Source: an uncultured Bacteroidota bacterium
GTDB lineage: Bacteria; Bacteroidota; Ignavibacteria; UBA10030; UBA8401
Assembly (NCBI GenBank): GCA_963772165.1
Contig: CAVYWA010000022.1
Coordinates: 2,832-66,831 of the forward strand
DNA: 64,000 bases
Direction of reading: 5' to 3'
Every line of letters begins with the position of its first letter. Position 1 is the stretch's first letter. The position numbers and the translations under genes are program-made. Under the pieces are notes generated by a model. The model ran no database searches, was not told the DNA's origin, and saw only the letters and a program-made list of their open reading frames with translations. This document shows positions 1-62,687 of this stretch, one piece after another.

Positions 1-1375
1 GGCAAAAGGCTGTCCGCTTGAATGATCAGGTCCCGAAGCGTCTCGCCTGTTTCCAGCTGGTACCTGTCCGGGCGGTAGACAGCCCCGTCGATCACAACAT
101 AATTTTTTTGGATATCCTGGATGGAGAAAAACGTCACGGTATCGCCGTCGGCCACTGTATGGTCCTTGCCTTCATTCAGAATATCCCTGAGGTTAGCATC
201 AACAACGGTCCGCTCAAATTCTCCCCTCTTTCGTTTTTCAAACGGGATGATATGGTCCAACTGCACCCGCTCGAGGTACGTTGTGGGGAGAGGACCGCCG
301 GCGTAATCGACAACTTTTTTCAAATTCTCTTCCGGCAGAAGCTCGTAAATGCCGGGGCGGCGGATCTCGCCGTCGACCGTTACTGTTTTCCCCCGTGTCG
401 GGATAAAAATAATATCGTTGCTCTGAACACGGACGTCGTTGATCTTCTCCGAGCCCATGAGATATTTATAGAGATCGACGTGCGCGATCACTTTGTTGTT
501 GCGGATCAACCGGATGTCTCTCAAACTTCCTTTCACGGTCGGGCCGCCGACCCAGAAGAGAGAATTAAAGACGTTCGAGTACGTGCTGACCGCATATCCC
601 CCAGGGGCTTTGACCTCTCCCATGATAAAAACGAACTTCGGGCGGAGACGGGCGATGGTGACGTCGAGCCAAACATTCCGCGGTGTGTTGACCAGTCCCT
701 TAAACGATTGGGACATTTCTTTCGTAATTGCTTTCTGCGCCTCCTCGAGCGTAAGCCCTGAAACGAGCACGGGGCCGACTGTCGGAATAAAGACCCTGCC
801 TTCGTTGTCGACCTCAAGGTCGTTCCGCTGCTCGACTTGCCCCCAAACATTGACGCGAATGACATCGCCCGGCCCGATCAGGTATTCGGGGTCAACAGGC
901 CCGGCTGCCGGCTCGAATGCCGCCGGGATTTTCTCGAAAATATCATAACCAAAATAGTGCCTCCCTCCGGGACCAAGAAATTTCGAAGTGTCCACTACCG
1001 GCTGGGCAGTCGTCGATTCGGGCGCCGCGGTGCTTTGGGCCGACAGCGCGGCCGGCAGTTTATGCGTCGTATCGATTATCGGGGCTGATTGAACCGGTGC
1101 CGGTACAGGGGAGGTTGTTCAAATAGCTCTGAGAGGTCGATGCCGTACTGTTGCGCCTTTGCAATGGCTTGATCCATCGTCATTCCGTACTGGCTGATTT
1201 TTGCCTGGATCTGATCGGGGGTCATTGTCCCGAGCTTGGCCTTCGCTGCATCTATTTGCGTCTGGGTTTGCGCGAAACCAGAGTAAGAGATAAGAAATAA
1301 AGAGATAAGAGATAAGAGATAAGAGATAAGATTCGCTTTACTCAATATCGGACGATTTAAGAACATTTTTCGCAT
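1..1375 (-). CDS. SLBB-domain polysaccharide export protein (Wza/KpsD-like); runs off the window start; frameshifted around 960-1130
   Basis: ORF 1076..1375 gives a signal peptide and helical N-terminus. Manual minus-strand translation downstream gives YFGYDIFEKIPAAFEP..YLIGPGDVIRVNVWG..FIMGEVKAPGGY..GGPTVKGSLRDIRLIR, collinear with the paralogue at 37832..40348. Confidence 0.85.
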
Positions 1376-1575
1376 TCTAATGGCGGTTTTAAAAAAATAA
1401 GAATTAAGAGATAAGAAATAAGAGATAAGAGAAAAGATTCGCTTTAATCAATACTGGTCGATTTAAGAACATTTTTCGCTTTCTAATGGCGGTTTTAAAA
1501 AATAAGAATTAAGAGATAAGAGCGCTTTACTCAATGTCGGCAGATTTAAAGGCATCTTCCTTTTACTAATGGCAA
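1283..1575. repeat. Three diverged tandem copies (about 85-105 bp) of the export-gene start region, interleaved with (GATAAGA)n heptamers
   Basis: CGCTTTA.TCAAT....G..GATTTAA...CAT.TT....TT.CTAATGGC recurs at about 1334, 1440 and 1523. Confidence 0.85.
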
Positions 1576-1597
1576 TGGTGTGTAAGAATAGCAGTAA

Positions 1598-1626
1598 AAT
1601 ATATAGAAAATAGTGATTTAGCGCAA
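1598..1626 (-). promoter_or_regulatory. Putative sigma70 promoter TTGCGC-17-TATATT for the SLBB export gene
   Basis: Motif match with 17-nt spacer; same -10 as the rRNA promoter. Confidence 0.5.
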
Positions 1627-1638
1627 GAGAAGGCCTTG

Positions 1639-1792
1639 AGTCCGTAGTCCGTAGTTCGTAGTCCGTAGTCCGTAGTCCGTAGTCCGTAGTCCGTAGTCCG
1701 TAGTCCGTAGTCCGTAGTCCGTAGTCCGTAGTCCGTAGTCCGTAGTCCGTAGTCCTGAGTCTTTTCTCTTATCTCTTATCTCTTATCTCTTA
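1639..1792. repeat. Composite heptamer array: (AGTCCGT) x16 followed by (TCTCTTA) x4
   Basis: Directly visible; one variant unit AGTTCGT; the last TCTCTTA unit overlaps the TAA stop of 1790..2353. Confidence 0.97.
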
Positions 1793-2353
1793 ATTCTCAT
1801 CTCTTAAACTCCCCCACAAATCAGCTAATCCGTTTTTAGCCGAATAGGCAGTGATAAATTCAAGGTCGATAATATCAGGGGAATTCGTCAATATGTTTTT
1901 GATATCGGCAAGATGCTTATCGGAATGGCCTTCTTGAAAATATTCAAGTTTCCGTATGATGACGTATTCCGGCGGGGCAATGAAGAGAGTGACTCCTTGG
2001 AAATCAATACTCTTTTTCCGCTCCAGAGCCCATGTATGAAGCTCGCTTTCCCCTCTTAAAAAAATGTCGGCTTTGAATCCGGTTTCGAGATGGATGAGCT
2101 TAAAATATCCTCGTTCGGGGCGGAGGATCTCATCTCTGATGACCTCAACAGGAGTCACATAAAACTCGCGCGCCGGAAACGCGGCGACAAAATTTGCAAT
2201 TTCCGAAATGCTTAAATCGAGGATGATATCAATATCGTGGGTAAGTCGCGGTTCGCCGTACACGATCGACGCAACCGAACCGGTGATCATGTAGTTCAAC
2301 TTCTGATTGTTGAGCCTCGAGGCGAAAATGCCGAAGAGGTTAGGTTCCTGCAT
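1790..2353 (-). CDS. Nucleotidyltransferase toxin, MenT1/AbiEii-like
   Basis: ITGSVAS..YGEPRLTHDIDII Pol-beta-superfamily motif, PPEYVIIRKL and KHLADI; resembles the Rv0078A (MenT1) motif EPRFTRDVDIV as recalled. Confidence 0.7.
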   Translation of the reverse strand: MQEPNLFGIFASRLNNQKLNYMITGSVASIVYGEPRLTHDIDIILDLSISEIANFVAAFPAREFYVTPVEVIRDEILRPERGYFKLIHLETGFKADIFLRGESELHTWALERKKSIDFQGVTLFIAPPEYVIIRKLEYFQEGHSDKHLADIKNILTNSPDIIDLEFITAYSAKNGLADLWGSLRDEN

Positions 2354-2549
2354 GTTTAAAAATCTCTCTTAGATGTTCCGCGACCGTCGCATCATCCCAT
2401 TTCGGGTGTTGAAGTTTCAGCCATGCCCGCTTCAGCTCCCTCGCTCCATGATAGAGGTTCAAGGATAGGCGCAGCTTTTTCTCGGCCGTCATCGACTTAA
2501 AAGGCAGCACACTTTCAGAATCATGATGTTTGTCGTCGGCAGTTGTCAA
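2340..2549 (-). CDS. Small helical antitoxin, MenA1 (Rv0078B)-like
   Basis: 69 aa, overlaps the toxin start; AEKKLRLSLNLY..R..K..HP.WD pattern. Confidence 0.6.
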   Translation of the reverse strand: MTTADDKHHDSESVLPFKSMTAEKKLRLSLNLYHGARELKRAWLKLQHPKWDDATVAEHLREIFKHAGT

Positions 2550-2552
2550 GGG

Positions 2553-2697
2553 AGTTCTGAGTCCGTGGTCCGTAGTTCGAGTCCGTGGTCCGTAGTCCTG
2601 AGTCCGTGGTCCGTAGTCCTGAGTCCGTGGTCCGTAGTCCTGAGTCTTATCTCTTATCTCTTATCTCTTATCTCTTATATCTTATCTTTTATCTCTT
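2553..2697. repeat. Composite heptamer array: 21-nt higher-order unit (AGTCCGT-GGTCCGT-AGTCCTG)n plus (TCTCTTA)n
   Basis: Directly visible. Confidence 0.95.
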
Positions 2698-2706
2698 CAA
2701 AAATCC

Positions 2707-4362
2707 TCAATAAAAATTGTATTCTATCGAAAGCAACGCATCGATCCGGTCGTCATAATTGCCGCTCACGCGCGCATATTGGAATACACCGGGGATGCTC
2801 GCATCTTGCGAATACCGGGAGATGAGGATGTGGCAATTGATGAACATATCGCGCACAATTTCATACTGCGCGGTAACGCCATACGACTGTTTTTTGATAA
2901 CCGGTCCGTAAAGAAACGGTGGCGTGGGAAGCATGTATTGATATTTCGTCGAGTCCATTCCTCCTTTGCGAAGGGACTCAAACGCCAGGCCGACTTTCAA
3001 ATCGCGGTAAGGCCGGTAATTGGCTTCAAGGTATAAGTCATCTGCGTTTTGGCCGATCCAATCCCCTAAATCATATTCACTGCTTTGGTATGTCGCGTCG
3101 GGATATTTGTGATTGTAGACCCAGGGATTTGTCCGTGTATATTCGATCAGGATATCGGTGTTCGGGAAAAAGAGATCATACGACCTGGTGCCGACCGTAA
3201 CCCCGATCTGATTTCGCTGTCTGGCGGAGTTAAAAATATCGGGGGTTGAAATTTCATCGATAAATAACGACGTGTAGAAATCGAAATTTTTCAGGCTGGT
3301 GACATCGACCGACCCGAACACTTGCTTATTGTCCTGGTCGTTGTCATAATGTTCCGCAGCAAAGTAGAGCATGACCGGAATCAGATAGATAAGCTCGGGG
3401 TTTCTCCCTCCGTATATTTCAGATTCACCGACCGCGATGTTAACACCGTTTGCCACCGAGGCTTCAAGCATCTGGGCAGCCATATATTTTTGAGCGTATA
3501 TCGGACGGAAACTCTGGCTCGGGGGAAGGCCGGGTACAAAATACGAGTCGACCGAATCGATAATGTCGGAACTGAGCCAGCTGTGGACGAAGGTGAAGTC
3601 GACATCCTTTCCGAGTTTTGCCCGAAGTTTTAGTTGAGGATACGACGGAGGTTTGTCCGATAGGATGATATTTCCATGGTATCCGGCTCCCCACACGTTC
3701 GGCATTTTTTCGATCGAAAGAACGAGAAATGAGGCAACATCGAAATTCAGCTGAGCGTCCGCAAGGTCGAAATCGAAACCATTTTTCGTGTAGGTTCCTG
3801 AATAGATCTGTCCCTGGGTTGGCGTGAGGTCATTGCGGATGCTCGTGTACGTCCCCGATTCGTGGTTGTCTCTGAAGTATAAATACATTCCGAGAAAATC
3901 TTTCGCATACCCGTAGCCCATCAACCCATTGGACCATATCTTAGTATTCGTGTTTGTCGGATTTGCTTCCGCTGAATAGCCGCCGATGAGATCGACATTG
4001 AATGTACCGGGGGTATTCCGGTACGGGTACAAATGCCAGCGCTCCTCGGGCAGTTCCTTTTCATAGTTGAGCTGTTTCAACTCTACATAAAATTCCTGCT
4101 TAAAGAACTCGAGCTGCTGTTTCTCAACGGAGGTCAGCTGATCGGAGTGCTGGTCGATAATAATGAGGTACGCCGCGACGTCCCGGCGCGTTATCGGCTT
4201 CACGGCATCTCGATAGTCCGTGATAACGCGCTTGCCATCCATTCTCTTAAGAAAATCGTACACTTCATGAGAAGGATGGACATACACCGACTGCGATGGC
4301 GATTGCGCGACAGCAAAGCAGCCGAGAAGAAGAATAATAACGTACCGTCGTATCATGTTCAT
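2707..4362 (-). CDS. Capsule assembly Wzi-family outer-membrane beta-barrel protein
   Basis: Signal peptide, WGAGYHGNIILSD motif, C-terminal aromatic EYNFY, polysaccharide context. Confidence 0.7.
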   Translation of the reverse strand: MNMIRRYVIILLLGCFAVAQSPSQSVYVHPSHEVYDFLKRMDGKRVITDYRDAVKPITRRDVAAYLIIIDQHSDQLTSVEKQQLEFFKQEFYVELKQLNYEKELPEERWHLYPYRNTPGTFNVDLIGGYSAEANPTNTNTKIWSNGLMGYGYAKDFLGMYLYFRDNHESGTYTSIRNDLTPTQGQIYSGTYTKNGFDFDLADAQLNFDVASFLVLSIEKMPNVWGAGYHGNIILSDKPPSYPQLKLRAKLGKDVDFTFVHSWLSSDIIDSVDSYFVPGLPPSQSFRPIYAQKYMAAQMLEASVANGVNIAVGESEIYGGRNPELIYLIPVMLYFAAEHYDNDQDNKQVFGSVDVTSLKNFDFYTSLFIDEISTPDIFNSARQRNQIGVTVGTRSYDLFFPNTDILIEYTRTNPWVYNHKYPDATYQSSEYDLGDWIGQNADDLYLEANYRPYRDLKVGLAFESLRKGGMDSTKYQYMLPTPPFLYGPVIKKQSYGVTAQYEIVRDMFINCHILISRYSQDASIPGVFQYARVSGNYDDRIDALLSIEYNFY

Positions 4363-4364
4363 GT

Positions 4365-4540
4365 GGTCCTGGTTCTTAGTCCGTAGTCCTGAGTCCTGTG
4401 AGTCCTGGGTTCTGAGTCCTGGGTTCTGAGTCCGAGTCTCTTAGTCCTGGGTCTTGAGTCCTGGGTTCTGAGTCCGGAGTCCTGGGTCTTAAGTCCCTCT
4501 CTTATCTCTTATCTCTTAATTTCTTAATTCTTATTTCTAC
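4365..4540. repeat. Composite heptamer array (AGTCCTG/GGTTCTG)n plus (TCTCTTA/TTTCTTA)n filling the whole spacer
   Basis: Directly visible. Confidence 0.95.
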
Positions 4541-5842
4541 TCACGCCTTAAACACTCCGCCGCTTTTTCGCATGACGATGTTTCTTGTATCGACGACCGG
4601 TACGGTAAATTGCTCGAAATTGATTTTTTTGTATTCATCGTGGGCTGTTGCAACAAGAATGAGGTCGAAGGCGTTTGATACTTCGACTGACTTTCTTCCT
4701 GCAAATTTTGGAAATTCCCTCGTATGTTTGATTGCGGGAATATACGGATCGTTGTAACTTACCACAGCCCCTTTTTCTTCGAGCTTCTCCATCAGGTGAT
4801 ACGAGGGGGATTCACGGTCGTCGTCGACGTTCGCTTTGTACGCGAGGCCGAGCATCAGAATTTTTGCACCTTTCAGCGGCTTGCCGACTTCGTTTAATGC
4901 TTCCATAACTCTGCTGACGACAAAATCGGGCATTGCCGTATTGATTTCTCCAGCCAATTCAATGAACTTTGTCGTCACGCCGTACTCGCGCGCTTTCCAT
5001 GTAAGATAGAAAGGATCGATCGGAATGCAGTGGCCTCCCAGCCCCGGTCCCGGGTAGAACGGCATAAAGCCGAACGGCTTAGTCTTCGCTGCCTCTACAA
5101 CCTCCCACACATCGATTCCCATTTTCATGAAGGTCACTTTCAGCTCGTTGACCAGGGCAATATTCACGGCACGGAAAATATTTTCCATGAGCTTCGTTGC
5201 CTCGGCGACCTTGACGCTCGAAACCGGGACGGTTCGTACAACAATCTGCTTATAAAGGAGGTCGGCAACGGCAAGGCCGTCGGGAGAGGTCGAGCCGACA
5301 ACTTTCGGAATCGTTTCGGTCGTGTAATTGGGGTTGTTGGGGTCTTCCCGTTCCGGAGAAAATGCGACGTAAAAATCTTTATCCACCTTCAAGCCGTTTT
5401 TTTCGAGGATCGGGACCATCACTTCTTCCGTCGTGCCGGGATAGGTCGTCGATTCGAGAACAACCAGCTGGCCTTTGCGGATATGCGGTGCGATGGCTTC
5501 GCAGGTTGTGACGATAAACGACATATCCGGTTCTCTGTTCTTGTTGAGAGGCGTCGGGACCGCAATGAGGATGGCGTCGCATTCTTTCAAGCGGGAAAAA
5601 TCGGTCGTGACATGGAAGCGTCCGGAGGCGTTAGCGCGCTGGATTCTCTCCGAGGAAATGTGTTTGATGTACGATTTCCCTTTCGCGAGGGAATCGACTT
5701 TCGATTTGTCGATGTCGAACCCGATCGACCGGAATCCCTTCTCCACAAAACAATGGAGGAGCGGAAGCCCGACATATCCCAGCCCGATAACGCCGACGAC
5801 GAATGATTTATTTTCAAGCTTTGCTAGCAGTTCGGTTTTCAT
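4541..5842 (-). CDS. Nucleotide-sugar dehydrogenase (UDP-GlcNAc 6-dehydrogenase, WbpA/WecC family)
   Basis: GLGYVGLP, ESTTYPGTT, FSPERED, GGHCIPIDP, GLAYKANVDDDRESP. Confidence 0.92.
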   Translation of the reverse strand: MKTELLAKLENKSFVVGVIGLGYVGLPLLHCFVEKGFRSIGFDIDKSKVDSLAKGKSYIKHISSERIQRANASGRFHVTTDFSRLKECDAILIAVPTPLNKNREPDMSFIVTTCEAIAPHIRKGQLVVLESTTYPGTTEEVMVPILEKNGLKVDKDFYVAFSPEREDPNNPNYTTETIPKVVGSTSPDGLAVADLLYKQIVVRTVPVSSVKVAEATKLMENIFRAVNIALVNELKVTFMKMGIDVWEVVEAAKTKPFGFMPFYPGPGLGGHCIPIDPFYLTWKAREYGVTTKFIELAGEINTAMPDFVVSRVMEALNEVGKPLKGAKILMLGLAYKANVDDDRESPSYHLMEKLEEKGAVVSYNDPYIPAIKHTREFPKFAGRKSVEVSNAFDLILVATAHDEYKKINFEQFTVPVVDTRNIVMRKSGGVFKA

Positions 5843-5846
5843 GTAT

Positions 5847-6026
5847 GAGTCCTGAGTCCGGAGTTCTGAGTCCGTAGTCCTGTGTCCGGAGTTCTGAGTC
5901 CGGAGTCCATAGTCTGTGGTAAAGGGTTCTGTTTATACCATCTCAAACCTAAAATTCCTAATTCATCATTCTTATCTCTTATCTTCTTACTTTCTTACTT
6001 CTTACTTCTTACTTCTTACTTCTTAA
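5847..6026. repeat. Heptamer arrays (AGTCCNG)n at 5847-5920 and (TTCTTAC)n at 5968-6026
   Basis: Directly visible; the second array overlaps the fcl 3' end. Confidence 0.9.
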
Positions 6027-7025
6027 CCACCCCTCGTACCACTCAATCGTCTTTTTCACCCCTTCCGCCAGCGGAACTTTTGCCTTCCATCCCAGCGCAT
6101 TGATCTTGCCGACATCCAGCAGTTTTCTCGGCGTACCGTCCGGCTTCGAAGTATCAAACACGATTTTCCCTTGATACCCTACACTTGCGCCGATCAACTG
6201 TGCCAGTTCGAGAATCGAGACATCTGTCCCCATGCCAATATTAATGATATCACTCTCATTATACTGTTCCATAAGAAAGACACACGCGTTCGCCATGTCG
6301 TCGGCATAGAGGAACTCCCGTTTCGCTTTTCCCGTCCCCCATAATGTCACCGATGGGGACTGCGCATTCCGTGCTTCAACGAACTTACGTATCAACGCCG
6401 GCAACACGTGAGAATTCTGCAGATCGAAATTGTCATTCGGCCCGTAGAGGTTCGTGGGCATCACCGAAATAGAATTCGTTCCGTACTGCTTGTTGTACGC
6501 CTGGCACATTTTGATGCCGGCAATTTTTGCCACGGCGTACGCTTCGTTCGTCGGCTCCAGCTTGCCGTCGAGCAGGTATTCTTCCTTGATCGGCTGAGGC
6601 GAGAATTTAGGATAGATGCAGGAGCTTCCCAGAAAACAAAGCTTCTTCACGCGGTTCAAATACGAGGAATGGATGACGTTGTTCTGGATTTGTAAATTGT
6701 CGAAGATAAACTCAGCGGGATAGGTACTGTTCGCGTGGATCCCTCCGACTTTAGCAGCCGCCAAAAAAACATATTCCGGCTTTTCCTTTTCAAAAAAATC
6801 TTGAACTGCTCCCTGGTTTTCAAGTTCCAGCTCGCCGTGAGTGCGCATGACAATGTTCGCGTATCCTGCGGATTGGAGCGCACGTACAATCGAAGAGCCG
6901 ACAAGTCCGCGATGACCGGCAACGTATATTTTAGATGAATGGTCCGTAGTGGTTAGTCCGTGGTCTGGAGTCCGTGGTCCGTAGTTCGTGGTCCTGAGTC
7001 CGTGGTCTGGAGTTGTGAATTTCAA
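6009..7025 (-). CDS. fcl: GDP-L-fucose synthase (start uncertain)
   Basis: [59 protein letters not shown]. Confidence 0.95.
6940..7012. repeat. Heptamer array (RGTCCGT/GGTCTGG)n, downstream arm of the inverted pair around the four-helix-bundle gene
   Basis: Directly visible; reverse complement of 7446-7501. Confidence 0.92.
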
Positions 7026-7043
7026 ATTTATAATTTTTTATCT

Positions 7044-7403
7044 TTACTGCTTAAGATACTTGATAAATCCGCCGATCATCCGTTTAGCCTCCGAAGCTTG
7101 TTCGAAACATTTTTGAAAGTCCGGTTCAACGATATATCCGGAATCCAATGCTACATACAATAACGATTGGACTTCAGACGCTGAACGATACGAATACCTC
7201 AAAAAGCTTACGAATGCTTTATCGGATCCTGAGTCAAAACCTTCCGCGATATTAGACATTATTGAAACGCTGGCACGCTGTATTTGATCGCGTAATCCGA
7301 AATCTTTAAAGAACTTCTGTTGAGCAGTAATTCTATAGACAGCCTTTGTTAATTCCCTTCCTTTTTTCCATGAATCAATGTCTTCGAAACGCACAATCTT
7401 CAT
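7044..7403 (-). CDS. Four helix bundle protein (23S rRNA IVS-protein / Avd-like family)
   Basis: FEDIDSWKKG..LRDQIQRASVSIMSNIAEGF..FLRYSYRSASEVQSLLYVALDSGYI. Confidence 0.92.
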   Translation of the reverse strand: MKIVRFEDIDSWKKGRELTKAVYRITAQQKFFKDFGLRDQIQRASVSIMSNIAEGFDSGSDKAFVSFLRYSYRSASEVQSLLYVALDSGYIVEPDFQKCFEQASEAKRMIGGFIKYLKQ

Positions 7404-7445
7404 ATTCCCTCCCCATATTTTATTAGCTATGAACCTCCACCTGCT

Positions 7446-7501
7446 GACTCCGGACCACGGACTCAGGACTACACGGACTTCGGACCACGGACTTCGGACT
7501 A
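7446..7501. repeat. Heptamer array (ACGGACT/TCGGACC)n, upstream arm of the inverted pair
   Basis: GACTCCGGACCACGGACTCAGGACTACACGGACTTCGGACCACGGACTTCGGACT; opposite orientation to all other AGTCC arrays. Confidence 0.92.
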
Positions 7502-8543
7502 ATACCCCCTCTTCGAGATCTTTTCATAATCAGCCTTCACCATAATTTTCACTAATTCCTCGAAACTTTGTCTTCGGCACCCATCCGAGCTTTTCTTTCG
7601 CCTTCGCCGGATCGCCGATCAACAGTTCTACCTCCGTCGGCCGGTAATAACGGGGATCGACCTCGACGATCGTCTTTCCGGTTTTCTTGTCGACACCTTT
7701 TTCGTCCTTCCCTTCGCCTTCCCATGCGAGTTCCATTGCTAACTCCTTGAAAGCGAGGTCGGCAAATTCTCGAACGGTGTGCGTCTCGCCGGTGGCCAAC
7801 ACAAAGTCTTCCGGCTGGTCCAATTGAAGCATTCTCCACATGCCGTCGACATATTCCGGCGCGTAGCCCCAGTCGCGCTTCGCATTCAAGTTTCCCAGGG
7901 AGAGTTTCGCTTCCAACCCCAGTTTAATTTTCGCTGCAGCCCTCGTAATTTTTTTGGTGACGAACGTTTCGCCCCTCCGGGGAGATTCATGGTTGAAAAG
8001 AATTCCATTGCAGGCGAAAATATTGTACGCTTCCCGATAGTTTATGATAATCCAATAACCGTAAAGTTTTGCAACTCCGTACGGGCTGCGAGGATAGAAC
8101 GGTGTCTTTTCATTTTGAGGAATTTGCTGGGCTTTGCCGAATAACTCGCTCGTCGATGCTTGATAGAACTTTGGTTTGATGCCGACTTCACGAATCGCAT
8201 CCAGAAAGCGGACTGTTCCGATGGCATCGACTTCGGCCGTATACTCAGGAAGCTCGAAGGAGACCTTGACATGACTTTGCGCGGCAAGGTTATAGATTTC
8301 GCCGGGATGGATCCTTTCCAGAATCCGGTTCAAATTGCTCGTGTCGGTCACATCGCCATAATGGAGAAAGAGTTTCTTCCCCAAAATTTCCGGGTCGTTA
8401 TAGAGATGGTCAATTCTTCCGGTGTTGAACGAACTGCTGCGGCGGATAATGCCGTGTACTTCGTACCCCTTTTGGAGGAGCAGCTCAGCAAGATATGACC
8501 CGTCCTGCCCTGTGATGCCGGTGATAAGTGCTTTTTTTGTCAT
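7499..8543 (-). CDS. gmd: GDP-mannose 4,6-dehydratase (one-base frameshift near 7562; restored end [21 protein letters not shown])
   Basis: [47 protein letters not shown]. Confidence 0.96.
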
Positions 8544-8575
8544 GGTAAGTTCGTCGTTGTTTCGGTTTCGATTCT

Positions 8576-8675
8576 TGAGTCCGTAGTCCTAAGTCCGTAG
8601 TCCTGAGTCCGTAGTCCTGAGTCAATTTATCTTTTCTCTTATCTCTATTTCTTATCTCTTATTTCTTATCTCTTA
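8576..8675. repeat. Composite heptamer array (AGTCCGT-AGTCCTR)n plus (TCTCTTA/TTTCTTA)n
   Basis: Directly visible; on the minus strand it begins at the TAA stop of 8673..9626. Confidence 0.93.
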
Positions 8676-9626
8676 CTTTCCCAACCACGCAGCGAGCAGG
8701 TCGGTAAGAGTCTGCTTCATTGGAATTTCCGGCTGCCAGCCCGTTGCATGCCGCAGCAATTCATTCGACCCTGCAAGAAGCTGGATATCGTAGCCTCGCA
8801 ATCTTTTCTCTTCAACGTTCAATTCGAATTGTACTCCGGTTATTGCCTCGTACATCCGGATAATCTCCTCAATGGAAAATACATTTCCCGAGCAGACATT
8901 AAAAATAAAATCTTTATCATTGGAAACCGTTCCCATCAGCCAATATGCCTGCACGACATCGCGCACGTCGGTAAAATCCCTCCGGGGTTTGACGTTTCCA
9001 ATTTGAATCACGGGGGAGGCATGGCTCTTGAGGGCAGCCGAGATTTGCCGCGCAAGGGATGAGCAAATGAAGGACGGTTTCTGCCGCGGACCCGTATGAT
9101 TGAAAGGGCGGGCGATAACGATGTTCATTCCTTCATACGTTTTGTACGTTTGTGCAATGTAATCGATGCTCGTTTTGCTGGCGGCGTATGGATTCATCGG
9201 ATGCGGGATCGATTGTTCGGTATGCACCAAAGGAAGACCTGCGGTTTCACCGTAAACCTCGCCCGACGTGACAACGACGATCCTTGGTTTAATGTCGAGC
9301 GCTTTGACCGCCTCAAAAATATTGATGGGGGCAATGACGTTGACCTTAAACGTTTCGGCAGTATGTTCAAACGAACTTGGGACGAACGGTTGTCCGGCAA
9401 GATGAAAAATAATATCCGGTTTGACTTCCTTCACAATCCTGAAAATCGATTGAAAGTCGACAATGTCACATTCAAACAAACGGATGCTTTTTTCATGAAA
9501 ACGAATGTTGTCATTCTTCTCAAGATCCCGTACTACTCCAAAAACATCTGCTAGGCTGTTATTGATAACATAGTCCGCGAGGTGGCTTCCGGCAAAACCG
9601 CCTACTCCGGTAATGAGTACTTTCAT
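8673..9626 (-). CDS. Extended SDR, Rmd-like (GDP-4-keto-6-deoxy-D-mannose reductase / Gmd-family)
   Basis: GVGGFAGSHL, HLAGQPFVPSS, SGEVYG, PYAASK, RPFNHTGPRQ, RDFTDVRDVV. Confidence 0.8.
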   Translation of the reverse strand: MKVLITGVGGFAGSHLADYVINNSLADVFGVVRDLEKNDNIRFHEKSIRLFECDIVDFQSIFRIVKEVKPDIIFHLAGQPFVPSSFEHTAETFKVNVIAPINIFEAVKALDIKPRIVVVTSGEVYGETAGLPLVHTEQSIPHPMNPYAASKTSIDYIAQTYKTYEGMNIVIARPFNHTGPRQKPSFICSSLARQISAALKSHASPVIQIGNVKPRRDFTDVRDVVQAYWLMGTVSNDKDFIFNVCSGNVFSIEEIIRMYEAITGVQFELNVEEKRLRGYDIQLLAGSNELLRHATGWQPEIPMKQTLTDLLAAWLGK

Positions 9627-9703
9627 TAAAACGGCAATAATATGTAAGGAAATCGGTAAAACCGCCTGCCACGAGCATCCCCTTTACGCTCGGCTATGCT
9701 CAC

Positions 9704-9732
9704 AATATACATAAACCCTCAAGCCTTTTCAA
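9704..9732 (-). promoter_or_regulatory. Putative sigma70 promoter TTGAAA-17-TATATT
   Basis: Motif match upstream of 9626. Confidence 0.55.
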
Positions 9733-9801
9733 CGATTGGATACGCGTGTGCGAATGAACGGGAAAAGAGGGCTAAAACAAAATAGAGATTATTGGGCGAT
9801 G

Positions 9802-10767
9802 TTAGCTATTTTCTAACTTCAACCTTTTTTTAAAGTACTCGATTGTCCGCAACAATCCTTCTTTACGGGATATTTGCGGCTCCCAGCCGAGCACGCTTTT
9901 CGCTTTTGAAATATCCGGCTGCCGAATCTTGGGGTCGTCCTGGGGAAGCTCTTTGAAAATGATTGTGCTCGAGCTGTGAGTCAATTGAACGATCTCTTTC
10001 GCGAGCTGAAGCATCGTCAACTCGGCGGGATTCCCGATGTTCATCGGAAGAGTGTACTCGGACATCATTAATTTGAAAATGCCGTCGATGAGATCAGAAA
10101 CATAACAGACGCTTCGTGTTTGGCTCCCGTCGCCGAAGACCGTAATATCTTCTCCCCGCAGCGCTTGTGAGATGAAAGCCGGAATAGCCCGGCCATCGTC
10201 GACCCTCATCCGTTCACCATAGGTATTAAAAATTCTTATGATTCGTGTCTCTACCCCATGATAGCGGTGATACGCCATCGTCATCGCCTCGGCAAATCGT
10301 TTCGCTTCGTCATACACGCCGCGCGGCCCGACCGGATTGACATGCCCCCAGTATTCTTCGACCTGCGGATGAATTTCAGGGTCGCCGTACACTTCCGATG
10401 TTGATGCGAGAAAGAACCGGGCATTCTTGGCCTTCGCTAATCCCAGTGCTTTGTGTGTTCCGAGAGAACCGACCTTCAGGGTCTGGATCGGAAGCTTTAA
10501 ATAATCGATGGGACTAGCCGGCGATGCAAAATGAAACACATAATCTACCCTGCCGTCGAGAAAGATGTACTCCGTAACATCATGATGAAAAAAGCTGAAG
10601 TGGGTATTGCCCAGCAAGTGTGCAATGTTTGCGGTGTCGCCTGTAATAAGATTATCGATACAGATAACGGAATGGCCTTCGGCAAGAAGTCTGTCGCAAA
10701 GATGCGATCCAAGAAAGCCAGCCCCGCCTGTGACGACGGAGGTTTTATTGGTTGGAGAAGAAGTCAC
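9802..10767 (-). CDS. UDP-glucuronate decarboxylase (UDP-xylose synthase) family SDR
   Basis: [53 protein letters not shown]. Confidence 0.9.
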
Positions 10768-10777
10768 GATTTATAGT

Positions 10778-10830
10778 CGAATAGTGGAATGATGGAATAA
10801 TGGAATAGTGGAATGGTGGAATGGTGAAAT
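10778..10830. repeat. Octamer array (GGAATRRT)n, downstream arm of the inverted pair
   Basis: CGAATAGT GGAATGAT GGAATAAT GGAATAGT GGAATGGT GGAATGGT GAAAT. Confidence 0.93.
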
Positions 10831-11243
10831 CATAGGGCTTCTATCCAACTTCCTTCTTTCTGCTTAGCCTGCAATGATTTCTTCAACGCAAGCAATTTAT
10901 TTTCGACCGAATAATGCAAAACATCGAATTCTTCAAACGATGTCTTTGAGATAACTCCGATTTCTTTGAATCCAATCATCCTTGTAAATAATTCTCCTGA
11001 GGATCCGAGGGCAATATTCAAAAATTGAAGATATTCTCGAATCGACCTTCGACAATAACCTTCTGCAATGTTTGAAGAAACTGATTGTGCAGCATTCAAA
11101 AGCTGAGATCGTAATTTAAAATCGACGAATCCCTCTTCCAGGATGAGGCTGCAAATCCAGCGAAACAAATACATCGCCTCATTCCACACCTCTAACTTCA
11201 TATATCCCCTGTTTACATTCCTGCGCCTTGTATATTCCTCCAT
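10830..11243 (-). CDS. Four helix bundle protein (23S rRNA IVS-protein / Avd-like family)
   Basis: GYMKLEVWNEA..LRSQLLNAAQSVSSNIAEGYCRRSIREYLQFLNIALGSSGEL. Confidence 0.92.
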   Translation of the reverse strand: MEEYTRRRNVNRGYMKLEVWNEAMYLFRWICSLILEEGFVDFKLRSQLLNAAQSVSSNIAEGYCRRSIREYLQFLNIALGSSGELFTRMIGFKEIGVISKTSFEEFDVLHYSVENKLLALKKSLQAKQKEGSWIEAL

Positions 11244-11252
11244 AAAACACCC

Positions 11253-11308
11253 CCAATTCCATTATTCCACTATTCCCCCATTCCATAATTCCACCATTCC
11301 AATATTCC
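11253..11308. repeat. Octamer array (CCANNATT)n, upstream arm of the inverted pair
   Basis: CCATTATT CCACTATT CCCCCATT CCATAATT CCACCATT CCAATATT CC; reverse complement of 10778-10830. Confidence 0.93.
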
Positions 11309-11319
11309 GTCCCCCCAAC

Positions 11320-12628
11320 TCATTCCCCATTCCTTCCGATTCCGAAATAGGTAAACCCTCTCTCCCGCATCAGTTTCGGGTCGTAAATATTCCGCCCGTC
11401 AAAAATGACCGGGTGCTTCATCAACGATTTTACCCTCTCAAAATCGGGACGTCGAAACTCGTTCCACTCGGTAATGACGGCGAGCGCATCGGCGCCTTTC
11501 AACGCCTCGTAGTTGTTGTCGAAGAAATCTACTTTCCCGCCGAACAAGCCCCTCATTTTTGAAATTGCAATCGGATCGTGAGCTCGTATTTTAGCGCCAA
11601 GCTCTAATAAGCTGTTAATGACGACAACCGCAGGCGCTTCTCGTATGTCATCGGTTTGCGGTTTAAAGGAGAGCCCCCAGATGGCGATGACTTTTTGCTT
11701 AATCTGATTGTTGAAATGGCGAAGCATTTTTTTGACAATCAGCCGTTTCTGCCTCTCATTAACTTCATCGACCGCCCGCAATATTTTGAATTCATACTCA
11801 TGCTCTTGTGCAGTTTTGATCAATGCTTTGACATCTTTAGGAAAACAAGAGCCGCCGTAACCGACTCCGGCAAAAAGAAACTGCTGGCCGATGCGCGGAT
11901 CACTTCCCATCCCCTTCCTCACCCACTCAACGTCAGCACCGGACTTATCACAGAGATTTGCAAGCTCGTTCATAAACGAGATTTTCGTCGCGAGGAATGA
12001 ATTCGCCGCATATTTTGTCATTTCGGCGCTCCATTCGTCCATCACCATAATTGGATTTCCCGTCCGTACGAACGGCGCATACACATCCATCAACACCGAA
12101 ATGGCCTTCTTACTTTTTGAGCCGATAACAATTCTGTCGGGTTTGAGGGAATCCTCGATTGCCGAACCCTCTTTTAAAAATTCAGGGTTCGAGACAACAT
12201 CAACTTCTTGTTTCCCTTTCTTTTTCAAAATCTGGCGAATTTTATCGACCGTCCCGACCGGAACTGTGCTCTTGCTGACAAGAATCTTATATTCGTTGGC
12301 GTACAGTTGCAATCTGATCGACGACCGCCAACACACGTGTCAAATCAGCCGAGCCGTCGTCCGACTGAGGCGTCGGCAGACAAAGAAAGATTACTTTTCC
12401 ACGCTCGACTGCCGCTTTGAGCGATGTCGTAAACTCAAGCCGCTTCTCCTGGGCGTTTCGCCGTACGAGCTCCTCAAGGCCCGGTTCGTAGATCGGGATG
12501 ATCCCTTTTTTCAAGTTCGAGATTTTCTTTTCGTCGATGTCCATGCACATAACGGAGTTGCCGGTGTCGGCAAAACAGGCACCCTGCACTAACCCGACGT
12601 ACCCTGTTCCTATAATCGATATTTCCAT
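11320..12628 (-). CDS. ugd: UDP-glucose 6-dehydrogenase (frameshift near 12290-12335)
   Basis: Two ORFs: GTGYVGL..IYEPGL..CLPTP and KSTVPVGT..SNPEFLKEG..GYGGSCFPKD..SFKPQTDDIRE. Confidence 0.93.
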
Positions 12629-12635
12629 CTTTTTT

Positions 12636-12682
12636 TAGTTCGTAGTTTTAGTATTCAGTTCGTAGTCCGAAGTCCGTGGTCG
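12636..12682. repeat. Degenerate heptamer array (AGTTCGT/AGTCCGA/AGTCCGT) upstream of ugd
   Basis: TAGTTCGTAGTTTTAGTATTCAGTTCGTAGTCCGAAGTCCGTGGTCG. Confidence 0.7.
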
Positions 12683-12975
12683 ATGCTTATCGCTTGCAAA
12701 TCCAACATTTCATCTTTCCACGATTCTCGCTGCTTACTCCAAAATTCTTATTGAACAAAGAACCTGCCCCTTCAAGCATTATTGAGGGTTCACAGCCTCG
12801 TAAAGGGTAGTCAACATTATCTTCCGGCTACTGCTATGGTATATGAGCGGCTTCAATCCTTCTTGACAAAGGTAGGGAAAAAAGGAAGGAAAAGAAATAA
12901 GTAAATTACAAAGTCAGGTCTTTACGAAAACCGCATCGATGGGTTTCAAAATTATATAGGTAAAGCTTTTGTTTT

Positions 12976-13005
12976 TCCCATTATTCCAATCTTCCGCGAT
13001 TCCAT
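12976..13005. repeat. Short orphan octamer array (CCANNATT-like)
   Basis: CCATTATT CCAATCTT CCGCGATT CCA. Confidence 0.55.
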
Positions 13006-13046
13006 ACGCTGATACCTGTTTCCTGAATCCTGCTCATTGTTCATCG

Positions 13047-14483
13047 TCAATACGCCCCTTTGCTGAAGAGCACTACCGGGACCGTCTCAAAGATGATTTC
13101 CAGGTCAAACATGAGCGAATGATTCTCAACATAGTATAAATCGAGAAGGATCATTTCTCTAAATTTCACGTCGCTTCTTCCCGACACCTGCCACAACCCT
13201 GTCATGCCGGGTTTAACGCAGGCACGATCCTGCACTGTTTCCCAAAATTCGTCGGATTCATGGAATTTTTCGATATCGCAGAGCGGTAACGGCCTCGGTC
13301 CCACCAAACTCATGTCACCCTTCAACACATTGAACAATTGCGGAAGCTCATCGATGCTCAGTTTGCGGATGATGCCGCCAACCCTCGTAACGCGGGGGTC
13401 GTTTTTCATTTTAAACAACACACCGTCAGTTTCATTATTGTCGAGTAACTCCTCTTTCATTTGTTCCGCATTGTCGACCATGCTGCGGAATTTAATGAAG
13501 TCGAATTCTTTCCCTCCTTTTATGCTTGTCCGTCGTTGGAGAAAAAAAATAGGTCGGCCGCTCTCTATATAGATGGCAAGAAAGGTGAAGAAAAAAATCG
13601 GGCTGAACAAAATTATTCCAATCGAAGCTCCAACAATATCAAACACTCTCTTGAAAAATAATTTAACAGCATCGACATGATATCGCGGCGGAGTCGTAAG
13701 CGTAATTCCCGCGATGTCATAGATCCGCGCAATTTCGAGCAGCTCTTCGGCTTGCGGCGATAATATTTTCAGTTTGATGTTATGTTTCTCGCTGATGCGT
13801 TTAAGGTGAGAGTAACCATTCACAACCATTTCCGACGTAGGAATGAAGATTCGATCGATTGAATAATTCTTTATCGTTTCTTCAATTTGATCGAACGTAA
13901 ATTGCGGCTGCAATGAGCTCTGAGGGTTGATAGTTTTCGTCACGAAACCTCTCACCCTGTACCCAAGCTCGGGCAATGAGGTAAACCGGCGAAAGATTGT
14001 GAAGGCATTGTGCTCATAACCCACGATCAAAGAATTATGAACGCCAAAACCGAGGTTCTGAAAAAATAAATTGATACGGCGAAGAAGAATCCTACCCAGG
14101 ACAAAAAAGAATGGGAGGGAAAAGAGGAAAACCACCAACGCGTGCCGGTCGACATAAAGATCATTCAAGAGAGAGGTGATCGTCAAAGTTACAAGAGCGC
14201 AAAGAATGTACCCGCGTACCATGATCAGGTTTTGCAGACTGAGGCTGAGATGGAATGAGCCGCGGTACAATCCCATCATCACCGCGATGGTAATGTAGAC
14301 CACCATAAAAATGAGGAAACATGTGAGAAGGATATCGTTCGCGGTATGCGTCCCGAGATGAGAAAACCGCTTCAGCCATACAACGAGGCTGGCAGAGGCG
14401 GCCATCGCGAGAATATCAATCAATTGCGATATGGCGACGAACAATATTTTCCAGTTGCGTTTGAGCATAGAGTGGAGCAACAA
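13047..14483 (-). CDS. Priming undecaprenyl-phosphate glycosylphosphotransferase (WcaJ/WbaP-like)
   Basis: N-terminal TM helices; KRVFDI, KFRSM, DPRVTRVG, SIDELPQLFNVLKGDMSLVGPRP, KPGMTGLWQVSGRS. Confidence 0.95.
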   Translation of the reverse strand: MLLHSMLKRNWKILFVAISQLIDILAMAASASLVVWLKRFSHLGTHTANDILLTCFLIFMVVYITIAVMMGLYRGSFHLSLSLQNLIMVRGYILCALVTLTITSLLNDLYVDRHALVVFLFSLPFFFVLGRILLRRINLFFQNLGFGVHNSLIVGYEHNAFTIFRRFTSLPELGYRVRGFVTKTINPQSSLQPQFTFDQIEETIKNYSIDRIFIPTSEMVVNGYSHLKRISEKHNIKLKILSPQAEELLEIARIYDIAGITLTTPPRYHVDAVKLFFKRVFDIVGASIGIILFSPIFFFTFLAIYIESGRPIFFLQRRTSIKGGKEFDFIKFRSMVDNAEQMKEELLDNNETDGVLFKMKNDPRVTRVGGIIRKLSIDELPQLFNVLKGDMSLVGPRPLPLCDIEKFHESDEFWETVQDRACVKPGMTGLWQVSGRSDVKFREMILLDLYYVENHSLMFDLEIIFETVPVVLFSKGAY

Positions 14484-44802: not shown

Positions 44803-46343
<1,541 letters not shown>

Positions 46344-62320: not shown

Positions 62321-62362
62321 TGCATTCCCCTCATATTTTTTTCTGTCATCCATCCTTTTCAT

Positions 62363-62687
62363 TGTCATCCTGATCCCGCCGCTTTATGGCGGGAGAAGGA
62401 TCCACAACACTGCACTGCCGTAACGGGAGGATGTCCCATCAGAAAAACTTACGGGCCACCAGACTGCAGTGCCATGGATTCTTCGTCGCTACGCTCCTCA
62501 GAATGACAAAGACTGTTGCCTTTTCATTGTCATCCTGATCCCGCCGCTTTATGGCGGGAGAAGGATCCACGACACTGCACTGCCGTAACGGTAGGATGTC
62601 CCATCAGAAAAACTTACGGGTCGCCAAACTGCAGTGTCATAGATTCTTCGTCTCCCGACGAAAAGCGTCGGGATCCTCAGAATGACA
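62363..62687. repeat. Two tandem palindromic REP-like elements (TGTCATCCTGA...TCAGAATGACA), period 165 bp
   Basis: 62363-62508 and 62528-62687 are near-identical except for the right-hand internal hairpin. Confidence 0.92.

Follow-up and report, generated by a model that had tools for sequence, protein, structure and literature searches.

The window analysed here, a 64,000-nucleotide stretch of one contig from an uncultured soil bacterium of the Bacteroidota group, carries a minus-strand sugar-biosynthesis operon with genes for a GDP-mannose dehydratase, a four-helix-bundle protein, an epimerase, a UDP-glucose dehydrogenase (UGDH), a Wzi-like protein and a nucleotidyltransferase-like pair. 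Its spacers hold tandem, head-to-tail arrays of a 7-nt unit, with 5.7-18.6 copies per array (TRF). In five of them, TRF and direct reading bear out the order first proposed from the sequence alone: on the minus strand, a stop codon is followed by (TAAGAGA/TAAGAAR)n, then by (NNGGACT)n, then by the next gene. The stop-proximal part is referred to as the A domain and the start-proximal part as the B domain. The features are as follows.

1280..1573 (-): 106-nt repeat, about 2.5 copies, every copy ending in a reverse-complement A array, (TCTCTTA)n
1639..1755 (-): B domain, (ACGGACT) x16.7, 98% matches, in phase with the A domain via the unit AAAGACT
1760..1806 (-): A domain, (TAAGAGA)n, enclosing the TAA stop (1792-1790) of ORF 1790-2353
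2553..2646 (-): B domain, 21-nt super-unit CAGGACT ACGGACC ACGGACT, 95% matches
2645..2697 (-): A domain, downstream of the Wzi-like gene (2707-4362) and its TGA stop
4366..4496 (-): B domain, CAGGACT/CAGAACC, contiguous with the Wzi-like gene's ATG
4498..4538 (-): A domain, TAAGAAT/TAAGAGA, downstream of the UGDH gene (4541-5842) and its TGA stop
5846..5908 (-): B domain, ending 4 nt before the ATG of the UGDH gene
5969..6025 (-): A domain, (GTAAGAA)n, supplying the epimerase gene (6009-7025) with its five final codons and its TAA stop
6955..7013 (-): 3' arm, B-type array
7044..7403 (-): four-helix-bundle gene (PF05635 / TIGR02436), enclosed by the two array arms
7446..7500 (-): 5' arm, inverted (reverse-complement) B array, beginning at the GDP-mannose dehydratase TAG stop
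8576..8623 (-): B domain, 14-nt period CAGGACT ACGGACT, 94% matches, with 32 nt between it and the ATG of the GDP-mannose dehydratase gene
8630..8680 (-): A domain, with ORF 8673-9626 ending at its first TAA
10773..11308 (-): second PF05635 gene (10830-11243) with inverted octamer arms, GGAATNNT at 11256-11308 and ATTCCANN at 10773-10830
12636..12682 (-): short, degenerate array of B type, immediately ahead of the start at 12628

A sixth A-B module lies just outside the window start (G000:C22:1338-1466, G000 being the source genome). The sequence-only reading held that three TAA stops are themselves repeat units, and direct reading agrees: those at 1790, 6009 and 8673 lie inside an A array, and the TGA stops at 4541 and 2707 just precede one. 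The B domains end 0-35 nt ahead of the next start codon (0, 4 and 32 nt for the starts at 4362, 5842 and 8543). Each spacer has its own variant mix and higher-order period, as had been stated (21 nt at 2553-2646 and 14 nt at 8576-8623, for example), and the AT-rich middle of the locus does lack arrays, TRF having found none comparable between 12.7 and 44 kb of the window. Of two supposed partial copies at 6940 and 12636, the second is indeed a short B-type array, but the first is the 3' arm (6955-7013) of an inverted pair. The other arm of that pair, at 7446-7500, and the reverse-complement TAAGAGA arrays at 1280-1437 were absent from the first account.

Judged by unit phase, each two-part spacer appears to be one unbroken heptad array made up of two domains. 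The window modules starting at 1639, 2553 and 8576 and the module at C16:5252 show a phase offset of +2 from A to B, with a hybrid unit, TAAGACT (as at 2553-2646) or AAAGACT, at the joint; a module on C3 keeps phase by way of TAAGAAG-TAAGAAC-TACGAAC-TACGGAC. The A domain 5969-6025 and the B domain 5846-5908 are about 60 nt apart, with non-repeat sequence in between. The A domain is purine-rich and its unit has the form of a stop codon plus G (TAAGAGA, TAAGAAR); the claim that TAA falls in all three frames is correct, and the domain offers a stop in every frame, often the gene's own. The B domain has the core G[GA]AC[TC]. Its main units, ACGGACT and CAGGACT, read cyclically, contain neither a stop nor a start codon; minor variants such as TAGGACT include TAG. 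A and B units are mutually non-complementary.

The arrays are not confined to this operon. About 188 period-7 array loci, in many locally clustered unit families, were found in the 4.13-Mb genome, and the preference for this period is strong: 179 arrays have period 7, six have period 6, two have period 8 and none has period 4, 5, 9-13 or 15. Similarly, 81 period-7 arrays were counted at 80 related loci, compared with 13 of period 6 and 16 of period 8. By crude longest-ORF gene calls rather than those of a trained gene finder, 124 of the 188 loci are intergenic, and the flanking genes are co-directional at 100 of these 124. On the sense strand, GGAC arrays outnumber GTCC arrays 12 to 1, purine content is 67% in arrays near stops (n=58) and 42% in arrays near starts (n=35), and in 26 of 35 multi-array spacers the purine content is higher in the 5' part (13/17 for plus-strand and 13/18 for minus-strand genes). 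The arrays thus follow the direction of transcription on both DNA strands. These counts, together with the in-phase junctions and the layout in the sister species, uphold the initial view of a dispersed, ordered and polarised family at gene junctions. Elsewhere in the genome, most paired arrays are inverted and hairpin-forming. A specificity for polysaccharide operons is not supported: density peaks there, but modules also occur between dnaK and clpB and at other places.

The A-B spacers are predicted to be unstructured as RNA. All five fold weakly (z +0.4 to +2.3; 125-199 of 200 shuffles fold equally well or better), which is automatic for any non-self-complementary unit. Fold prediction also indicates that the array at about 1397-1437 may pair with the A domain 1760-1806 (z = -2.5). 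The 16S rRNA carries a CCUCC tail, and AGGA is enriched 4.4-fold at positions -18 to -5 of called genes. In the final B unit, AGGA stands 7 nt upstream of the ATG of UGDH and 4 nt upstream of that of the Wzi-like gene; by eye, a well-placed AGGA is found ahead of only about 4-5 of the 13 start codons preceded by a B array. No promoter-like excess was found in the arrays, and terminator-like sites numbered 15 against 15.2 expected in 13.5 kb. Intrinsic terminators and REP elements, which form short GC-rich hairpins (with a T-run in terminators), were therefore rejected as identities. Phase-variation repeats lie in a reading frame or between promoter elements; the arrays of the five spacers sit between ORFs, overlapping only the last codons or stops of three genes.

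The link to four-helix-bundle genes, put forward for testing in the first account, is real. Both PF05635 genes of the window are bracketed by inverted arrays. The arms 7446-7500 and 6955-7013 form a predicted stem of about 55 bp around the gene 7044-7403 (z = -6.8). In this, the genes 7044-7403 and 10830-11243 resemble heptamer-armed PF05635 cassettes and those 23S rRNA intervening sequences that carry an ORF. The five A-B spacers differ in being predicted single-stranded with no nearby inverted partner, and were rejected as such cassettes because they lack reverse-complement arms folding into a long stem. That feature was found only at 7446-7500/6955-7013, at the octamer arms of 10773-11308 and possibly at 1760-1806/1397-1437. 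The four-helix-bundle gene 4HB1 lies in the GMD-to-Epi1 spacer in five genomes, is missing there in three, and occupies the Epi1-to-UGDH spacer in L071.

The syntenic operon of the sister species G001 (75-93% amino-acid identity) has B arrays at the orthologous spacers with the same layout, and different A units. The B core is kept and its unit variants differ: over all spacers, ACGGACT, CAGGACT, CCGGACT and AAGGACT number 27, 15, 3 and 0 in G000, and CCGGACT, ACGGACT and AAGGACT number 15, 11 and 7 in G001. From these variant spectra of two species, we infer that unit variants evolve in concert over the spacers. In other relatives the B unit is GGACC-TT or CGAAC, the orthologous arrays of L016 and L028 consisting of CGAAC units without GGA. 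Relatives at 81-83% identity have the same gene order and array-free spacers of 34-100 nt; these, and the array-free AT-rich middle, imply that the arrays are dispensable for operon function. Metagenome contigs (2-6x depth, one study) show a 14-nt deletion at 6955 in one X1 contig and a length 28 nt shorter over 2630-3862 in X1 and X2, as well as indels of 5, 6 and 8 nt. The sequence-only reading had dismissed microsatellite slippage. This does not stand, because the species differ in units and copy numbers, near relatives are array-free and contigs differ by 14 and 28 nt; turnover of the slippage type contributes.

Intergenic heptamer repeats that closely precede start codons have been described in Beggiatoaceae, cyanobacteria and Bacteroidetes, with a proposed role in translation (PMC4679880). 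The arrays reported here share with heptanucleotide long SSRs (Mrazek et al., 2007, as cited in PMC4679880) and with cyanobacterial STRR (as described in PMC2670836) tandem, mainly intergenic 7-nt units, a genome-wide excess of period 7 far above other periods, and a restricted number of unit families in each genome. STRR often form hairpin pairs between operon genes, comparable to the paired arrays of this genome; those between hupS and hupL are 7-bp hairpins whose function is given as unknown (PMC2670836). The present arrays are unlike both types in their units, their host, their non-complementary domains joined in phase, their stop-to-start order and their locus- and species-specific variants. 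The named STRR unit sequences belong to heterocystous cyanobacteria; strict STRR were rejected, since the units here are TAAGAGA/NNGGACT and the host is not a cyanobacterium. The TAACTGA repeats of marine Beggiatoaceae, cyanobacteria and five Bacteroidetes are likewise forward heptamer direct repeats ending a few nt from start codons, in some Bacteroidetes spacers as 'larger assemblages' of several heptamers (MacGregor, 2015; PMC4679880). Forward orientation near the downstream start is shared, whereas the present arrays reach greater lengths, up to 17 copies, have two domains, start from the stop codon of the preceding gene and are concentrated in one sugar-biosynthesis locus. Identity with TAACTGA repeats was rejected because the unit differs, the nearest G000 families being AACTGAT-type, with four arrays. 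The (ATCTTTC)n repeat of Haemophilus influenzae hmw1A is also a heptamer SSR, transcribed, acting at the RNA level and variable in copy number; as described, it forms a hairpin with a G-rich arm, cut by RNase III, in a single 5'-UTR (PMC12721329), unlike the hairpin-free arrays between cistrons described here.

These arrays belong to the known class of heptanucleotide repeats (STRR/long SSRs, TAACTGA repeats) as a variant specific to their lineage. We consider it about an even chance (roughly 50%) that they are transcribed arrays of this type, forming a local family of the genome-wide period-7 spacer population, shaped by slippage and homogenisation and serving as an unstructured intercistronic mRNA linker. 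The arrays would lengthen and shorten through 7-nt slippage, and recombination or gene conversion would homogenise those of neighbouring spacers, which would explain the locus- and species-specific variants. Orientation and order would persist because the arrays belong to the polycistronic mRNA. A role at the mRNA level is a plausible candidate on sequence grounds: the non-complementary arrays may keep the linker unstructured, the A domain may terminate translation in any frame, and the B domain may then act as an A/C-rich leader free of structure, in some cases containing an AGGA core, that loads ribosomes on the next cistron. Around the inserted four-helix-bundle gene, the B array would double as one arm of the long stem.

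It is possible, if doubtful, that the arrays are a functionless satellite, the by-product of a lineage-specific 7-nt slippage tendency, the arrays being permitted only where they spare reading frames and being propagated or made uniform through gene conversion, with order and polarity inherited from a copied module and kept because an array inverted within an operon would bring gene inversions or hairpins with it. The array-free next relatives and AT-rich middle, the fast unit turnover between species, the 14- and 28-nt contig differences (at 2-6x depth in one study), the many unrelated, locally clustered unit families and the junction units that recur across several modules, as copies would, are all consistent with it. 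Yet B arrays are kept at all orthologous spacers of two species at 75-93% amino-acid identity despite high mutability, polarity tracks transcription on both strands genome-wide, beyond one copied locus, and the G[GA]AC[TC] core is retained as flanking positions drift.

We regard it as unlikely that the arrays are cognate cis-elements of PF05635 genes, the gene and its arms being an autonomous operon-spacer element that seeds, maintains or uses same-family arrays in neighbouring spacers, for example via a protein binding its own repeat RNA or DNA, with the two-part spacers as 3' arms standing alone, joined in phase to stop-proximal arrays already in place. On inspection by eye, every major array family is matched by one PF05635 gene that has inverted arms of the same family and lies inside that family's local cluster, the example in the window being GGACT with 7044-7403. 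This matching also favours a multi-site array for a trans-acting factor (CsrA with GGA every 7 nt, ribosomal protein S1 or four-helix-bundle proteins encoded nearby) in post-transcriptional control of the polysaccharide operon, as do a CsrA gene in the genome, the GGA or AGGA in all B units of G000 and G001, and the proposal of S1, Csp or CsrA for TAACTGA repeats (MacGregor, 2015; PMC4679880). Such an array is nevertheless very improbable, with orthologous CGAAC arrays devoid of GGA in L016 and L028 and putative sites outside hairpin loops; a CsrA-titrating or CsrA-regulated RNA was rejected on the change from GGA to GAAC in these two and on the lack of predicted hairpins. Recombination junctions, in which direct arrays provide homology for small accessory cassettes (four-helix-bundle genes, nucleotidyltransferase-like pairs) to integrate, excise and move between spacers, are quite unlikely, somewhat more so than PF05635 cis-elements. 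They would account for the varying position of 4HB1, for the pair of additional ORFs (140 and 170 aa) that G001 carries between two direct B arrays where G000 has one array-only spacer, for the nucleotidyltransferase-like pair 1790-2530 flanked by two A-B modules, and for an inserted ORF in L014 whose flanks hold an array and a duplicate of the epimerase gene's 3' tail. Cassette indels are, however, an expected side effect of any dispersed repeat and no proof of array purpose. Most arrays have no variable gene beside them, the edges of the variable AT-rich glycosyltransferase block are array-free except for the short 12636 array, and no associated recombinase was noted on informal inspection.

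Intergenic heptamer arrays have been on record for decades in cyanobacteria, and later in Beggiatoaceae and Bacteroidetes; to our knowledge, their function has never been demonstrated. This locus is a compact natural test bed, with six two-domain, non-pairing arrays and an inverted pair around an inserted gene in one operon, its orthologue in the sister species and, in the relatives that come next, spacers without arrays. It shows order and polarity following transcription, and ideas of translation or mRNA architecture, or of selfish spread instead, could be put to the test there. If the link to four-helix-bundle genes is causal, it would also provide a function for a very widespread gene family.

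Five intergenic spacers of the distal operon carry a two-part heptamer array. Read on the minus strand, the order in all five is stop codon, TAAGAGA/TAAGAAR run (A domain), NNGGACT run (B domain) and then the downstream gene. The modules and the gene content of the operon are as follows.

3-995: Wza-like exporter, at the operon's end
1639-1806, minus strand: A-B spacer (TRF and direct reading); B part at 1639-1755, 16.7 copies with 98% matches
1790-2353: nucleotidyltransferase-like ORF, no match in Pfam/NCBIfam search
2553-2697, minus strand: A-B spacer (TRF and direct reading); 21-nt period at 2553-2646
2707-4362: Wzi-like protein
4366-4538, minus strand: A-B spacer (TRF and direct reading)
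4541-5842: UDP-glucose dehydrogenase (UGDH)
5846-6025, minus strand: A-B spacer (TRF); 14/28-nt period at 5847-5908, ~60 nt of non-repeat sequence separating A and B
6009-7025: epimerase (Epi1)
7044-7403: PF05635 four-helix-bundle gene
7530-8543: GDP-mannose 4,6-dehydratase (GMD)
8576-8680, minus strand: A-B spacer (TRF and direct reading); 14-nt period at 8576-8623
Upstream of the GMD gene: two further epimerases
10830-11243: second PF05635 gene
Upstream of the second PF05635 gene: split UDP-glucose dehydrogenase
13047-14483: initiating sugar transferase

The two-part arrays described in the sequence-only reading were seen in all five spacers by TRF and direct reading, and TRF also returned the higher-order periods it had named. 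As it had claimed, three ORFs (ending at 1790, 6009 and 8673) take their TAA stop from a repeat unit, and for the ORF ending at 6009 the array encodes the last five codons. The array-free middle of the locus was likewise recovered, with no comparable arrays found by TRF between 12.7 and 44 kb of the window. A sixth A-B module lies outside the window, just past its start, 3' of a Wza/Wzc-like gene (contig C22 of the window's own genome, G000, 1338-1466). ORFs running through the arrays, in our own calls or in the sister species G001 (e.g. a 140-aa ORF), look spurious as coding sequence. An assembly artefact was rejected, since G001, a single contig of 4,235,171 bp, shows this architecture too. 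Array sequence was also recovered in contigs of four soil-metagenome runs (one study), which mostly break at the arrays. The observed arrays are real and well beyond chance.

Several further features of the locus were recorded. The second UDP-glucose/GDP-mannose dehydrogenase (11320-12628) consists of two overlapping frames (12287-12628 and 11320-12336) and its counterpart in G001 of one; the split near 12310 reflects either a frameshift or an error in the assembly. Between two A-B modules, the 1790-2530 region holds a ~50-aa ORF and then, overlapping it, a nucleotidyltransferase-like protein of 187 aa that carries a GxxxxxxDIDI motif; the gene pair resembles an accessory insert of toxin-antitoxin type. 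Upstream of the Wza-like gene, each copy of a 106-nt repeat (1307-1573, ~2.5 copies, 92% matches) comprises a ~65-nt unique element, kept as one copy in G001 (3074190-3074290), and a reverse-complement TAAGAGA array. A long 123/249/372-nt tandem repeat at 57619-59290 probably encodes a repeat of ~41 aa; another repeat, of 165 nt (1.8 copies, 94%), lies apart from it at 62354-62652.

The arrays are a genome-wide system and not peculiar to one operon. In G000 (4.13 Mb, 28 contigs; genes called as the longest ORF), 179 arrays of period 7 were counted, compared with 6 of period 6, 2 of period 8 and none of periods 4, 5, 9-13 and 15. Of 455 TRF rows, 153 have period 7, 80 have period 14 and 35 have period 21. 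Relaxing the threshold raises the count to 260 arrays at 188 loci across the genome; 124 of the 188 loci are intergenic by the longest-ORF calls, and the flanking genes are co-directional in 100 of these. Many unit families are present, including TAAGAGA (23), AACAATG (20), TAAGAAA (15), AATTATG (15), AATGATC (14) and TAAGAAT (14), and they form local clusters, such as those of AATGATC (C9:216-235 kb), TAAGAGA (C16:0.6-6.5 kb) and GGACT (where C22 begins). The genes of the C16 cluster are also sugar-modifying (DegT aminotransferase, GFO/IDH/MocA oxidoreductase, hexapeptide transferase), and between them C16:1-7600 carries dense TAAGAGA arrays with many hairpins and a PF05635 gene (3775-4140). 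This cluster may be the window's locus continued over a contig break, as C22 likewise begins with a DegT gene. Relative to the genome average, arrays are ~20-fold denser at the C16 cluster and in the window, but such modules are also found between dnaK and clpB (C3), 3' of a C25 peptidase gene (C5) and at other sites.

Array polarity tracks transcription, not DNA strand. Among 35 co-directional spacers of G000 with at least two arrays, 13 pairs are inverted, 12 heterologous (the TAAGAGA-GGACT type included) and 10 direct; the inverted pairs (unit array, loop, reverse complement) form long hairpins. The more purine-rich part is the 5' one in 26 of the 35 spacers (13/17 on the plus and 13/18 on the minus strand). 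Sense-strand purine content is 67% in stop-adjacent arrays (n=58) and 42% in start-adjacent ones (n=35), and GGAC arrays outnumber GTCC arrays on the sense strand by 12 to 1, or 5 to 1 excluding this operon. The purine bias on both strands and the GGAC excess therefore indicate that polarity follows transcription, in agreement with the polarised, non-random arrangement originally proposed. In general, one array follows the stop and another precedes the start; the two-part polarised array is the form of this layout in which the two are not complementary.

In four modules (those starting at 1639, 2553 and 8576 of the window and at C16:5252), A passes into B without a phase break, at an offset of +2; the joining unit is a hybrid, TAAGACT or AAAGACT, and CAGGACT ACGGAC comes next. 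The units of the C3 module shift gradually in phase (TAAGAGA-TAAGAAG-TAAGAAC-TACGAAC-TACGGAC), and the junction of the 4366-4541 module shows a one-base slip. The in-phase hybrid joins speak against two independent motifs adjacent by accident; they argue that B arose from A-like units or that whole modules were copied. The exact 22-nt A/B junction had no match in a genome-contig collection that possibly does not include the window's own genome. Over the whole collection, A-then-B order occurs at two loci (G001 and one Bacteroidales MAG) and B-then-A at one unrelated locus. In the distantly labelled Bacteroidales MAG (locus L115, 301-351), (TAAGAGA)3 is followed by (CTACGGA)n in the window's order, by either convergence or module transfer.

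Folding predicts almost no RNA structure in the five A-B spacers. Their minimum free energies are -12 to -19 kcal/mol over ~147 nt, z is +0.4 to +2.3, and of 200 shuffles 125 to 199 fold equally well or better; a hairpin reading of these spacers was rejected. For the A domain at 1760-1806, pairing is predicted with a reverse-complement A array ~330 nt downstream, which would leave the B array looped out between them (z = -2.5). Rfam gave no matches at E <= 0.1 in window positions 1-14000. Neither promoter-like sites (19 vs 15.9 expected) nor terminator-like sites (15 vs 15.2) are in excess and none lies within arrays; a single promoter-like site (2549-2520) directly follows a B array. The 16S rRNA (44809-46343, minus strand) ends 3' in CCUCCUUU, and AGGA and GGAG/GAGG are 3- to 4-fold enriched at -18..-5 of called starts (longest-ORF calls). 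In the last B unit, AGGA lies 7 nt upstream of the UGDH start and 4 nt upstream of the Wzi start; at other starts preceded by B, the leader is simply A/C-rich and G-poor.

Inverted array arms also surround four-helix-bundle genes. In the GMD-to-Epi1 spacer, an inverted B array (7446-7500) that begins at a TAG stop is predicted to form a stem of ~55 bp with the direct B array (6955-7013), enclosing the PF05635 gene (z = -6.8; 0/100 shuffles as good). The second PF05635 gene (10830-11243; region 10773-11308) is flanked by inverted arrays of 8-nt units, GGAATNNT / ATTCCANN, and the arm design is therefore not bound to period 7. The proposed link to these genes is supported within G000, where flank duplex energy beats all 30 shuffles at 7 of 12 PF05635 genes; complementary arms were seen by eye at three more and none at two. 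G001 has such arms at 8-9 of 12 full-length genes, which are mostly orthologues and not independent support. The arms vary from gene to gene and, by eye and post hoc, one PF05635 gene lies within the cluster of each major array family. At GMD-to-Epi1 the gene is present in G000, G001 and three other loci (L014, L016, L023), absent from L012, L013 and L015, and one spacer further on in L071; its arms co-vary (GGACY in G000, CGAAC in L016). The genome encodes RNase III.

Other inserts were found at the arrays. Between two direct B arrays, G001 carries two additional ORFs, one of 140 aa and a nucleotidyltransferase-like one of 170 aa, where the G000 equivalent is a single array-only spacer. In L014 a 37%-identical 170-aa ORF lies one spacer further up, bordered by an array and a duplicated 3' tail of the epimerase gene. 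Such inserts between or next to arrays, in G001, L014 and the window (1790-2530), indicate that recombination at arrays occurs. The L014 insert (1860-2700) is also preceded by a truncated four-helix-bundle gene start, its flanks being the duplicated tail (…EWYEG) and an inverted array; the region is a recombination scar at an array.

The syntenic operon of G001 (75-93% amino-acid identity) has GGACT-type arrays at orthologous spacers, and the Epi2-to-GMD spacers of both species share the junction AAGATAAATTGACTC, so these arrays are orthologous. The stop-proximal units of G001 differ (TAAGAAT, TGAAAAG, TAAGTTG/TACGTTA, TAAGTTC), with the stop codon first in every case. Over all spacers, the B variants are ACGGACT 27, CAGGACT 15, CCGGACT 3 and AAGGACT 0 in G000, and CCGGACT 15, ACGGACT 11, AAGGACT 7 and CAGGACT 7 in G001, a species-typical pattern that bears the mark of concerted evolution. 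L014 and L071 have the B unit TTGGACC/TTGGACT, L016 and L028 have CCGAACC/ACGAACT, and L013, L015 and L023 have GAACTTA/AAACTTA; the core common to close relatives is G[GA]AC[TC]. The replacement of GGAC by GAAC in relatives weakens a CsrA sponge as an explanation. Three relatives at 81-83% identity (L017, L019, L020) have spacers of 34-100 nt and no arrays. Among 41 genomes searched for exact units (G000 and 40 relatives), TAAGAGA x3 occurs in 3 and GGACT x4 in 5, G000 counted and all in one genus. The exact units are thus genus-restricted in this set and the phenomenon is wider: 80 loci around the UGDH orthologue hold 81 period-7 arrays vs 13 of period 6 and 16 of period 8.

The arrays belong to a known, functionally unexplained class. 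Intergenic TAACTGA heptamers just upstream of start codons are reported from Beggiatoaceae, cyanobacteria and five Bacteroidetes; some Bacteroidetes spacers contain mixtures of heptamers, and S1, Csp or CsrA was proposed to bind the TAACTGA repeats (MacGregor 2015, PMC4679880). Heptanucleotides are the most abundant long SSRs with 5-11-nt units, for which polymerase slippage was suggested (Mrazek et al. 2007, summarised in PMC4679880). Other sources describe 7-bp STRR hairpins of unknown function between hupS and hupL (PMC2670836), a transcribed heptamer SSR working via an RNase III-cut hairpin (PMC12721329) and effects of heptamer repeats near Nostoc repair-gene start codons (preprint, 10.1101/2022.06.06.494920). 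A non-exhaustive search outside subscription journals found no description of TAAGAGA/GGACT arrays or of inverted repeats around PF05635 genes. New here are the in-phase two-domain form, the strict order and polarity relative to transcription, the concerted species-specific variants over one operon's spacers and the B array doubling as one arm of an inserted-gene stem.

Among the soil-metagenome contigs (2-6x depth, four runs of one study), one that bridges 6955-7013 has a 14-nt deletion and those across 2630-3862 are 28 nt shorter; further indels of 5, 6 and 8 nt also occur. These length differences are compatible with slippage in unit steps and are weak evidence. The main rival explanation, that the arrays are a functionless satellite, we consider rather unlikely. 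The earlier view that they are not random microsatellite slippage is not supported. In the mechanism that we prefer, with a probability of about 0.5, slippage would create the arrays, recombination would homogenise them, and they would serve as an unstructured intercistronic linker.
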